Part shown: positions 48,750-64,000 of the stretch, in pieces
How positions within the stretch are numbered: position 1 is the first letter of the stretch
Layout: each line of letters begins with the position of its first letter
Assembly (NCBI GenBank): GCA_048213135.1
Contig: PS015388.1
Span: 1-64,000, forward strand
DNA length: 64,000 nucleotides
Origin: Reclinomonas americana ATCC 50394
Lineage: Eukaryota
Reading direction: 5' to 3'
Translations under genes and position numbers: made by a program
Notes under the pieces: model-generated
Databases searched by the model: none
Seen by the model: only the letters and a program-made list of their open reading frames with translations
What the model was told of the DNA's origin: nothing

Positions 48750-51700
48750 CAAAGGCGTGACGACGTGTGAGTCGTTGAGTGTCGGACGCGCCTATGTCGG
48801 CACCTACGCGGATGGCGTGCATGTGCCTTATCATCGGTGAGAGAGAGAGAGAGAGAGAGAGAGAGAGCACAGCAAGAGAGAGAGAGCAGTGTGTGTATGT
48901 GTGTGTGAGAGAGAGAATGCGGAGAAACTTGTGCATTCTATCATCATTTATGCAATACTCTGCAACACTCACTTGCACTCACTTGCATACACTCGCACAC
49001 ACTTGCACACACTTGCACACACTTTGCACACACTTTGCACACACTTGCACACACTTTGCACACACTTTGCACTCTCTCTCACTCACTCACTCTCTTTCCC
49101 TCACTCACTCACTCACTCACTCACTCACACACTCACTGCACTCACACACTCACACACTCACTCACTCACTCACTCATTCACTCACTCACTCACTCACTCA
49201 CTCACTCACACACACACTCACTCACTCACTCACTCCCTCCCTCCCTCCCTCCCTCCCTCACTCACTCACTCACACACACACTCTCTCTCTCTCACTCACA
49301 CACACACACACTCTCTCACTCACTCTCTCTCTCACTCACTCACTCAATTTCTCTCACTCACACACACACACACACACTCACTCACTCACTCACTCACTCA
49401 CTCACTCACTCACTCACTCACTCACTCACACACTCACTCTGTCACTCACTCACTCACTCACTCTCACACTCTCTCACTCTCTCACTCACGCACACACTCA
49501 CACACTCTCACACTCTCTCACTCACTCACTCACTCACTCACTCATTCACTCACTCACTCACTCCCTTCCCTCCCTTGCCACTCCCTCCCATCTCTCCCTT
49601 CCCTCCCTTTCTCTCTCTCACTCACTCACTCACTCACCCTTCCCTCCCTTCCCTCCCTTCCCTCTTTCCTCTATTTTTCCCTCATTGACTCAGTGACGGG
49701 TTCATCTTTGCGGAATGGGGACCCGACTCCAATCCCAACGATGCCACCTTTGCGCCTTCCACAGTCGGTGTGGCCGTTCGACAGGGCACAGTCGCTTTTA
49801 CGGATGAGCAGGTGCGTCTGTGATGTTATATTCAGTCGCATACACTCGCTCGTTCGGGAAAACCGAGAGGTCGTCGTCTGCTTCTTCTCCTTCTCCTCCT
49901 TTTTCTTACTCGCGTTCTTGTTCTTGTTCTTCTCCTTCGCCTCTGTCTCCTCTTCATTCTTGGTCTTGTCTTCCTTTTTTTTTTCTCCGTTGGTCATCTT
50001 GTTCTTCCTCCTTCTCATTCTCGTCCTCCTCCTTCTTCTTCTTATTCTTCTCCTTCTTCTTCTTCTCCTTCTTACTCGTGTATTTCGTGTTCTTGGTCTT
50101 CTCCTTCGCCTCTTTCTCCTCTTCATTCTTGGGTTTTCCTTCTTCTTTGTCTCCGTTGCTCATCTACTTCTCTTCTTCACAATCTTCTCTTCTCCATTTT
50201 AGTCACGTTCTTTTCTCGTTCTTCGTCTTCTTCATGTTCTTCTTCTTTTTCTTCTTCTTCTCCTCCTCCTCCTTACTCGCGTTCTTGTTCTTGTTCTTCT
50301 CCTTCGCCTCTGTCTCCTCTTCATTCTTGGTCTTGTCTTCCTTTTTTGTCTCCGTTGCTCATCTTGTCCTTCCTCCTTCTCATTCTCCTCCTCCTCCTCC
50401 TTCTTCTTCTTATTCTTCTCCTTCTTCTTCTTCTTCTTCTTGTTCACGTTCTTGTTCTTGTTCCTCTCCTTCGCCTCTTTCTCCTCTTCATTCTTGGTCT
50501 TTTCTTCCTTCTTCGTCTCTCCGTTGCTCATCCTCTTCTTCACAATCTTCTCTTCTCCATTTTTGTCACGTTCTTTTCTCGTTCTTCTTCTTCTTCTTAT
50601 TCACGTTCTTGTTCTTGCCTCCCCCGCTTCTCTCTTGTTCTAAATGCGCTTCTTCCTCTTCCCCTGTCTCTTTCTCTTCTTGTTCACGTTGTTTTTCTTG
50701 TTCTCTCTTTCTCTTCTTTTCTCCATACTCTTCTGGTTCTTCTGCTTCTCCTCTATTCCTTGTAGTTCTCGTTCTTCGTCTTCTCCACTTTCTTGTTCCT
50801 GTCCTTGTTCATTCTTTTGTCTCCGTCTACTTCTTCTCCTCATTGCACATCATCTCATTCTCTTCCTTCCACTTTGTTACCTTCTTCATCGTAATCTTCT
50901 CCTCCTTCTCCTTCGTCTTCTCCTTCTTCTCCTACTCATCCTCTCATTCGTCCTTCTCCTTCTTCTCTTCCTCCTCCTCCTCCTCCTCCTTCGTCTTCTT
51001 CCTTCTCTTTCACCACGTCTCGACGTCCCCCTCTCCTTCCCCCACATTCCCCTCCTTCTCCTCTCTTCCCCCTTTCCCTCTCCACCCCCTTCCCCGCCTA
51101 TCCCTCCATCTCACTCCCCCCCTCCAGGCCCACATCATCCGCCTCCTCGAGGGCGGCCACGTGCGTCTCCTCTCCGGTCACATTAACACCAGCGGCTACC
51201 GCGACGGCCCCGCCTTTGAGGCGCTCTTTGATCGTCCTCTCGGCGTGGCCATTGGCGCCGATCGATTCGCTTACGTCGCCGACTGGGGCAACCAAGCCAT
51301 TCGACGGGTGTCGTTGTACAATGGTGTGTGACGCCTCGCTCCATTCGGAGTCTCGGTCGCTCACTCTTCCCTTTCCGCAGGCTTCACGGAGACCGCCTTT
51401 GGTATCCCTTGCAAGGACGACGTCTGCGTGCAAGTCGATGGCCCGCGCGATGTGGCGCGATTCTCGGGGTGCCGTCAATATCTTCTCTGGGTTTCTTTGA
51501 TTTGGCCGTCTCTTGCTTACGTTTGCTTCTGCAGACCCATGTCGCTTGTGTTCGGCGAGTCGATGCAGCACATATACGTCCTCGACGGCTCTGACGACGG
51601 TCACGTGTTGAATGTGGCCATTCGCCTTGTCGACGTCAGAAGTTGCGTTGTCCATCGCTATCACCACCATCGCATCCGCTTGCTGCTCATTATTATCTCC

Positions 51701-63700: not shown

Positions 63701-64000
63701 TCACTCTTCTCGCAGCTCTCGATTCGGTTCACCGTCTCAAGGAGCGCATTTGCGAGTGTGATGGCGTGTCGCCGGCTGCTGCCGGACACGTGGTCGTCAC
63801 TCTGCCGGACAACTCTGAACTGCTTCCCAGCGCAGACGCTCAGCCGCTGGCTGCCACGGCGATTGCCGACGATGATAATCTGCGCACAGTTTCGACATTG
63901 AGAATCGCATTGCTTCGCTTTTTTCCCCGCAGCTGATCACCGTTCCCATCACAGCACTGGCTGCCGCTCAACATCACGCTGCGTACATGGAACGGTCATG
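48750..64000 (+). CDS. Large single-pass protein: NHL repeats - TM helix - two EF-hands - at least 18 tandem ubiquitin-like domains (5' end in gap, 3' end beyond window)
   Basis: NHL motifs GYRDGPAFEALFDRPLGVAI..YVADWGNQAIRRV and DGTFNLASFNRP..LLVAD. TM WWRTVVGAVMSTIFVVSLMSYWCC at about 53330-53402. EF loops DVDASGQLELPEF and DQDRTGSVSVDEF. Then repeats of about 80 aa such as V.TWTG..I.V....T...LK..V...EGLP....L......L....TV...GL. Confidence 0.8.
48965..49640. repeat. (TTGCACAC)n and (CACT)n simple-repeat tract in an intron
   Basis: Directly visible. Similar (CACT)n, (CA)n and (CT)n/(GA)n tracts occur throughout the window. Confidence 0.9.
49880..51000. repeat. CTT/CT-rich intronic low-complexity tract with internal duplications
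   Basis: CTTACTCGCGTTCTTGTTCTTGTTCTTCTCCTTCGCCTCT and TCTCCGTTGCTCATC blocks recur several times. Confidence 0.8.

Follow-up and report, generated by a model that had tools for sequence, protein, structure and literature searches.

The 64,000-nucleotide window analyzed here comprises bases 1-64000 of contig C380 (69,740 bases) in the 108 Mb, 16,441-contig assembly of Reclinomonas americana ATCC 50394, and its right-hand part is occupied by a gene for a long protein built largely of ubiquitin-like (Ubl) repeats. A sequence-only reading of the window had described an NHL ectodomain, a transmembrane (TM) helix, an EF-hand pair and at least 18 tandem Ubl domains of two alternating types, W and P. 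We set the exons manually on the raw sequence, checked them with a script, and obtained a model running from 48750 to contig position 64933 with 56 exons, 2,285 codons and zero stops, GT-AG borders at 55 of 55 introns, and a branch-point-like word in 45 of the 55. The domain order in this model (NHL blades, TM helix with CC, EF-hand pair, and W/P-alternating repeats from 54881), together with the profile test described below, confirms that observation. The features of the gene are the following, the last of them on the contig C381 that we take to carry its continuation.

48022..48268, + strand: local duplicate of the candidate first exon (88-89% identity; its frame stops after 55 codons)
48386..48582, + strand: candidate first exon, uncertain (ATG, signal-peptide-like hydrophobic stretch, open into the assembly gap at 48583-48749)
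48750..53238, + strand: NHL propeller, exons 1-13 (six-bladed; predicted extracellular or luminal)
53302..53597, + strand: exon 14, with the TM helix (53331-53403), CC, basic residues and a low-complexity juxtamembrane segment
53598..53977, + strand: intron 14 (380 nt, 20-N gap, phase 0), whose splicing would fuse the NHL-TM part to the EF-Ubl part
53978..54820, + strand: exons 15-19, EF-hand pair and linker (loops at 54212-54247 and 54464-54499)
54881..55879, + strand: Ubl unit 1 (W), by exon model and profile
55940..56245, + strand: Ubl unit 2 (P), by exon model and profile
56306..57516, + strand: Ubl unit 3 (W), by exon model and profile
57739..58049, + strand: Ubl unit 4 (P), by exon model and profile
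58121..58450, + strand: Ubl unit 5 (divergent, P-like), the sole break in alternation
58451..59133, + strand: Ubl units 6 (W) and 7 (P), by exon model and profile
59202..60773, + strand: Ubl units 8 (W) and 9 (P); the intervening intron has a 350-N gap
60835..61871, + strand: Ubl units 10 (W), 11 (P) and 12 (W), by exon model and profile
62098..63171, + strand: Ubl units 13 (P), 14 (W) and 15 (P); unit 15 scores on Pfam ubiquitin at E 0.059
63235..63888, + strand: Ubl units 16 (W) and 17 (P), by exon model and profile
63955..64000, + strand: Ubl unit 18 (W), first exon; from here the array runs on to the end of C380 (69740)
C381:13-4485, array; C381:5102, VIT; C381:6038-9257, vWA; then a linker, a putative C-terminal helical domain and a stop at C381:12738: the part assigned through the presumed C380-C381 join

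The extent originally given for the gene, 48750-64000, has to be revised, with the start probably lying upstream of 48750 and the end beyond 64000. The earlier claim of a single continuous spliced frame stands in that the spliced model is stop-free, but the frame crosses four introns holding assembly gaps. Introns in this region of C380 are mostly 55-82 nt long, and the longer ones are microsatellite-filled, often with assembly gaps. A gene finder trained on the C380 locus recovered 53 of the 56 exons exactly and added four spurious micro-exons; this agreement is circular for C380, and the program is informative for other contigs only. The donors of these introns have T at position 3 in 25 of 55 cases, and 15 of 55 read GTTG[A/C]GT, the usual consensus displaced by one base, a pattern also present on other contigs.

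The candidate first exon at 48386 is single-copy apart from its local duplicate. We consider it fairly probable that this ATG exon is the signal-peptide exon of the gene, and go no further than that because our codon model calls it non-coding. The claimed NHL ectodomain held up, since one exon (51128-51322) scores above the Pfam NHL cut-off (E 3e-4) and six blade motifs were counted by inspection, the propeller being identified by sequence alone; a second exon scores more weakly, and the region also gives a weak TEN_NHL match (E 0.039). It contains a possible 3-nt microexon (51708-51710) with its own acceptor and donor, and the frame is open either way. Genome-wide, NHL-repeat exons gave at least 149 matches (150 candidates scored of 433).

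The TM region is a single hydrophobic helix followed by CC and two arginines. Net charge changes from -1 before the helix to +3 after it, and the CC lies on the C-terminal side, signals that support a type I TM with the Ubl array behind it in the cytosol, where the repeats had been placed from the outset. Glycosylation sequons give no topology signal, at 0.26 versus 0.31 per 100 residues on the two sides. Exons 15-17 then encode two EF loops of 12 residues, both fitting D-x-D-x-x-G with a terminal E; the Pfam EF-hand score, taken on a half-domain exon, is below cut-off (E 4e-5). These loops are canonical, as the suggested Ca2+-responsive receptor would need, but it is motif consensus that speaks for calcium here, and the response is to be read as a prediction. 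The EF-hand module is related to an unrelated gene on C4844/C7646. The other TM-bearing paralog of this gene (C26/C171) has neither NHL nor EF-hands, which are therefore add-ons rather than core, and, because the NHL family is large and the EF-hands have a relative in an unrelated gene, the propeller and the EF pair look like recent additions.

The repeats begin at 54881, as claimed, and all 11 quoted motifs were found. Within the window the 17 complete units follow the order WPWPPWPWPWPWPWPWP, and an 18th unit, of type W, is entered with its first exon, which agrees with the proposed count of at least 18, but alternation is broken once, by unit 5. Twenty units lie ahead of the next gap in C380. 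A typical repeat is split into a first exon of ~67-70 nt, going from phase 0 to 1, and a second of 164-182 nt that returns from phase 1 to 0, which makes the complete Ubl unit a symmetric cassette. A profile built from paralogous units only matched 20 of 20 model units (E 3e-10 to 4e-21) and none of the 51 control sequences, which were shuffled or reversed. Run over all six frames of the window, it gave 22 matches, every one of them on the + strand and within 55712-63688. Detection of the repeats is thus far beyond chance.

W and P are two real unit types. Identity between units is 29% for W-W, 26% for P-P and 20% for W-P, the nearest neighbour is of the same type for 18 of the 20 units, and in a tree the W and P units of paralogs and metagenome fragments cluster by type. 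With ubiquitin residue numbers that we assume to transfer correctly through a database Ubl domain, the type-defining residue falls at position 8, in the first hairpin, being W in 10/10 W units and P in 9/10 P units. Most W units have a second tryptophan in the short linker after the preceding P unit, which suggests that P and W form a packed two-domain module. Across the units, cores are kept and surfaces are variable.

The fold of the repeats was read from a paralogous W unit encoded by a single exon on C182, using an alignment of 28 rows from the window and the rest of C380 plus one C26 row. The resulting model (predicted local distance difference test, pLDDT, 96.3; predicted template modeling score, pTM, 0.84) matched the parkin Ubl in Foldseek (E 2e-5, template modeling score 0.78) and aligned to a ubiquitin variant with Z 11.2 and a root-mean-square deviation of 1.6 over 71 residues. 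By this model the repeats have the ubiquitin fold, and the proposed beta-grasp identity, for which folding single repeats had been suggested as a check, is upheld through the C182 unit. Confidence was low (pLDDT 56) for a single-sequence prediction of unit 16 that included its in-frame intron; the best Foldseek match had E 1.4, with ubiquitin-fold entries at ranks 1-5. When a profile of 19 second exons was searched against the PDB, 21 of 23 weak matches were ISG15, OASL, viral ubiquitin and NEDD8 entries, the top ones being ISG15 and OASL at E 0.014-0.056. Pfam ubiquitin was run on exon-sized pieces only, and on C380 a single one of 19 repeat exons or read-throughs scored (E 0.059). The last two units on C381 score at 8e-8 (above cut-off) and 5e-3, a C26 exon at 2e-8, and five of nine metagenome homologs between 1e-4 and 0.03.

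The features of a ubiquitin modifier are not kept in these units. A C-terminal Gly-Gly was found in 0 of the 36 units listed, as the description of the array as non-cleavable had it. Identity to a canonical-type Ubl reference is ~20%, position 44 is hydrophobic in 1/10 W and 6/10 P units (7/20 overall), and no lysine occurs at position 48 or 63 in any of the 20 units; as far as the alignment allows us to read these positions, neither the canonical hydrophobic patch (8, 44, 70) nor the chain lysines are retained. The suggestion that the array mimics a ubiquitin chain fares poorly, given the low identity, the changed patch and the missing K48 and K63.

Past unit 20, where inverted and duplicated sequence lies within C380:65700-69740, the contig has a scaffold piece in reverse orientation carrying a P unit and a W unit, and two blocks that are 96% identical. 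The contig ends 63 nt into an intron that follows a P-type first exon, and C381 opens with 12 nt of an acceptor, then a second exon of P type in matching phase; joined, they give a 75-nt intron and a normal P unit. C381 also has 92-98% identical blocks in common with units 19-20 of C380. No other contig carries the C380 or C381 end, and neither a contig across the join nor a haplotype twin was found. Repeat-exon searches outside C380/C381 returned the C26/C171 paralog only; shorter arrays surfaced later, so these searches were not exhaustive. We conclude that the gene almost certainly continues from C380 onto C381.

On C381, the joined P unit is followed by 11 further units, then VIT, vWA, a loop and a short, putatively helical domain, with 883 open codons to the stop at C381:12738. 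Counting the 96% block as an uncollapsed allele gives an array of 36 units, and counting it as real gives 39, for a protein of ~4,500-4,800 residues. Single C381 exons give Pfam VIT at E 0.005 and VWA_2, VWA and VWA_3 at E 1e-4 to 4e-3, below cut-off because of exon size; the longer exon of a paralog reaches E 2e-14 for VWA_3. The MIDAS (metal ion-dependent adhesion site) motifs are intact in the C381 model (DCSGS and LTDG). On its predicted domains, the tail classes as a VIT-vWA module of the VWA5A/Vwa1 type, and it would belong to this gene by way of the contig join. The Ser/Ala/Pro-rich loop is followed by a 100-residue terminal domain shared with the paralogs. Searches of Pfam, the PDB and Atlas gave no named match for the terminal domain, and no PDB or Pfam match suggested a vault link; MVP likewise gave no match, but that search was equally silent in control genomes.

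Membership of the NHL-TM part and the EF-Ubl part in one transcript turns on intron 14, which was excluded from training before its splice sites were scored. Counted from the bottom, its donor is 46th of 55, a score that 0.1% of 1,045 background GTs reach, and its acceptor is unremarkable, standing 18th of 55 and equalled by 3% of 524 background AGs. Over the 60 nt leading up to the donor the coding score is +15.7, and over the next 60 nt it falls to -6.6; at the acceptor it goes from -29.8 to +11.4 in the 45 nt that lie upstream of the first ATG, where the other two frames are also positive. In build, the intron is microsatellite plus pyrimidine, like other long introns. The C26/C171 paralog gives signal peptide, TM, 39 Ubl units, VIT and vWA in one parse, and it is likewise gapped between TM and array.

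The alternative is two neighbouring genes, one for an ordinary NHL-TM surface protein with its end near 53660, the other for a soluble EF-hand-Ubl-VIT-vWA protein whose start would lie near 54023. Read-through meets a stop 20 codons past the donor, an ATG stands 15 codons into exon 15, and the intron has its 20-N gap and no consensus branch point; NHL exons belong to a family of at least 149 matches, and three of the five Ubl-VIT-vWA paralogs have no TM (one of them truncated by a contig end). These points make a second gene conceivable, but a strong donor placed exactly at the drop in coding potential, matching phases, right-frame coding potential upstream of the ATG, an intron built like its long neighbours and the TM of the C26/C171 paralog all argue against it. 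We regard two genes as unlikely and a single transcript as probable.

To place the gene among its relatives, we searched with the vWA exon and obtained 30 matches on 18 contigs; once apparent twins are paired, these amount to 10 neighbourhoods. The survey leaves out C18, C304 and C423, and the second vWA genes of C393/C1231 and the tandem copies of C74 were parsed partly. W/P units precede VIT in five of the 10 neighbourhoods (the C380/C381 gene, C26, C182, C262 and C193). The C26 paralog, which is 94-97% identical in DNA to its twin C171 over the array, has 39 Ubl units, a clear signal peptide, a 15-residue ectodomain and a TM with basic residues after it. In C182, seven units follow ~1,400 residues of coiled-coil-like sequence, and in C262 two units follow ~600 such residues (both judged by eye); C193 has at least four units before the contig end interrupts. 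C74 and C7883 have little or nothing ahead of VIT-vWA. The VIT-vWA core of the C380/C381 gene is 46-49% identical to those of C182, C262 and C111 and 38% identical to that of C26, which groups with C1231 and C78 in a tree of sequences from the R. americana genome only. Since VIT-vWA is kept while the parts preceding it differ among paralogs, the head appears constant and the anchors and spacers swapped.

Several of these loci have features of their own. In the C26 paralog (C26:17700-29000), the first two thirds of the array are a different alternating Ubl pair, placed before the W/P block, and each of these two other types forms its own tree group. At C111:182001-192000 (minus strand), at least a dozen FN3-like or related beta-sandwich repeats lie upstream of VIT-vWA, one per exon, and two of six tested exons score against fn3 (E 0.014 and 0.04). 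C78 (22501-32500) may encode a second kind of membrane-anchored VIT-vWA protein, with an ectodomain, a TM with a cysteine cluster, a lysine run and a low-complexity stalk, across four gaps, and C74:162001-172000 holds at least three near-identical tandem plain VIT-vWA genes.

Outside R. americana, an exhaustive profile search gave 13 matches: nine metagenome fragments, three multi-Ubl proteins and one WD40 protein, the last probably spurious. The nine fragments carry W/P units on contigs of 0.9-1.9 kb with no context, which, on their sequences, points to W/P units in other organisms. The multi-Ubl proteins (P0002, P0008 and P0012, with 6, 15 and 7 units matched) are near-canonical and have neither TM nor vWA. 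A word-index database search, with proteins of up to 2,000 residues within its coverage, returned no full-architecture homolog, and metagenome locus scans found no matching locus.

For the gene as a whole, we put at about even the chance that its product is a tether of anchor, spacer and head, with the Ubl chain as a structural arm. One gene would encode a type I membrane protein of this layout. Outside, the NHL propeller, drawn from an expanded family, would bind a ligand or surface; at the base, next to the membrane, the CC could be palmitoylated and the EF pair would confer calcium sensitivity. The 36-39 tightly linked Ubl domains, derived from an old P-W module, would form a stiff, mechanically stable arm. 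With a Ubl unit spanning 3.5-4 nm, this arm would be ~125-155 nm long and would hold the VIT-vWA head away from the membrane. There the head, possibly released from autoinhibition by the helical C-terminal domain on its disordered tether, would use its metal site to bind a partner, either cytoskeletal or a scaffold. We assign the array an arm role because cores are conserved, surfaces are variable, unit number is free and internal duplication is ongoing, and a spacer role because unit number varies and other rods replace the array in paralogs, the same head being preceded by 2, at least 4, 7, 39 or 36-39 units, by coiled-coil-like sequence or by FN3-like repeats. The constancy of the head on varied anchors and spacers suggests, in turn, that it binds a fixed cellular structure. 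The scaffold or spring named in the sequence-only reading agrees with such an arm, but misses the C-terminal VIT-vWA head on the next contig.

Several observations weigh against this tether. The candidate signal-peptide exon scores as non-coding (-14, versus +0.9 for the signal exon of the paralog, in the codon model) and is truncated by the gap at 48583-48749. Assembly gaps lie in four of the introns, intron 14 among them, and at the contig join. The invariant first-hairpin tryptophan of the W units is retained in the metagenome homologs, and this residue could be a ligand site, not a packing residue.

A second use for the chain would be as a docking platform for the ubiquitin-proteasome system, as a mimic or as a proteasome or SCF dock, recruiting ligases or receptors to the membrane. 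The predicted fold is a true ubiquitin fold and the two head-adjacent units score on Pfam ubiquitin (E 8e-8 and 5e-3), and Dictyostelium Vwa1, in the text of PMC10539598, co-purifies with the F-box protein FbxwD and CulE. Loss of the hydrophobic patch and chain lysines, the ~20% identity to a canonical-type Ubl and the missing Gly-Gly do not fit such a platform, nor does an array that ranges from 2 to 39 units and is replaced by other rods in paralogs, and we find the platform improbable.

A further alternative draws on the gene upstream.

41301..46925, + strand: P-loop NTPase and TPR_12 gene (stop at 46925; 5' end approximate), STAND-like by inference

TPR_12 scores E 3e-108 in this neighbour, and its P-loop exon gives weak, below cut-off Pfam matches to nSTAND3, NB-ARC, NACHT and ABC, so that its STAND-like character is suggested by architecture. 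A fusion of the TPR gene to the Ubl gene was considered and rejected because of the stop at 46925. The C380 and C26 Ubl-array genes each lie directly downstream, on the same strand, of a P-loop-TPR gene of one subfamily; the two neighbouring NTPase exons are 59% identical, with 16 other matches ranking between them. The P-loop NTPase-TPR family counts at least 117 matches, which often sit in tandem clusters, and may be an NLR-like expansion in a microbial eukaryote. No such neighbour is present at C182 or C262/C55.

This arrangement could be an immune guard pair, with the membrane Ubl chain as bait for microbial ubiquitin-targeting proteins and the STAND-like NTPase-TPR protein as its monitor. 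In its favor, both TM-bearing array genes are downstream of a gene of the same subfamily, the linkage holds despite VIT-vWA cores that are 38% identical and non-sister in the tree, and the NHL and P-loop-TPR families are both expanded. However, only two loci show it (2/4 with a visible upstream neighbour), possibly through one old duplication; with at least 117 P-loop-TPR matches, such proximity is not unusual; the window NTPase exon has at least 14 closer relatives on contigs where no Ubl array was found; and a poor ubiquitin mimic would be a poor bait. We hold the guard pair to be quite unlikely and treat the NTPase-TPR linkage as a lead, not a finding. Doubtful too is a wider extension of the tether, a lineage-specific long-arm class that would invert the adhesin plan towards the cytoplasm, combining a P-W rod of >100 nm, an autoinhibited head and interchangeable ectodomains, among them this NHL propeller with its calcium switch, and working with NLR-like NTPase-TPR proteins in sensing at the plasma or phagosome membrane.

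The opposite topology would make the protein a stalked adhesin with an extracellular Ubl chain and a vWA tip, in line with the usual adhesin plan of a repeat stalk and a terminal MIDAS domain. With the window signal peptide uncertain and sequons equally sparse on both sides it has some room, but it is very improbable given the charge of -1 before and +3 after the helix, the CC on the C-terminal side, the signal peptide, 15-residue ectodomain and post-helix basic residues of the C26 paralog, the intracellular nature of EF-hands and of VWA5A-type modules bearing the C-terminal domain (PMC10539598), and the TM-less paralogs that carry the same module.

Compared with known systems, the parts of the C380/C381 protein are all known, and no description of their combination and scale was found. 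The established roles of ubiquitin-fold domains are those of modifiers, or of docking domains present singly or in small numbers. As in ISG15, OASL and FAT10 (two units), the beta-grasp domains are arranged head to tail with very short linkers; unlike those, the C380/C381 array lacks Gly-Gly, is a non-modifier, has many more units in two-type alternation, and sits between a TM and VIT-vWA. Teneurins also place a six-bladed NHL propeller beside a single TM helix. They are type II proteins with EGF repeats, a YD shell and a toxin-like tail, all of which, including the type II topology, are absent from the C380/C381 model. The module in the head follows Dictyostelium Vwa1 and human VWA5A/BCSC-1 in having VIT, vWA with DxSxS and TDG, a helical region, a low-complexity loop and a putative short C-terminal helical domain in the same order, as well as in lineage-specific paralog expansion (PMC10539598). 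The order VIT, hybrid, vWA, helix, loop and C-terminal domain is described in PMC10539598, together with a proposed autoinhibition by the terminal domain, and the predicted head architecture matches it. In contrast to the soluble Vwa1 and VWA5A, which start at VIT, here the module follows 36-39 Ubl units, the EF pair, the TM and the NHL propeller; the main text of PMC10539598 contains neither "ubiquitin-like" nor "transmembrane". Like PARP4 (vault PARP), the protein has extra N-terminal domains before VIT-vWA and a putative C-terminal helical domain (PMC12280208); unlike PARP4, its model has no PARP or BRCT domain. The span from TM to stop is fully assigned to EF-hands, Ubl units, linkers and VIT-vWA with its C-terminal domain, leaving no PARP catalytic domain, and gaps hide short pieces at most. 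No Ubl-array or TM-anchored VIT-vWA protein was found in the literature searched, which took in few subscription journals, and the architecture is as unfamiliar as it first seemed.

PMC10539598 treats what intracellular VIT-vWA proteins do, the human tumour suppressor VWA5A among them, as an open question, and a VIT-vWA family with swapped anchors, if our parse is correct, would offer a route to the cellular target of the head. If ubiquitin-fold domains serve here by the dozen as structural elements, the fold would be put to a new use, and the P-W module, with its own exon symmetry, would be a natural model for mechanically stable polyproteins.

Elsewhere in the window, gene-finder output alone places a kinesin-4-like motor gene with a long coiled-coil tail at 27834-38559. 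Two minus-strand exons at 39050-39690, from an unassigned gene, contain a GKFITIYP-like word, which we take to resemble the N-terminal kinases of class III lanthipeptide synthetases.

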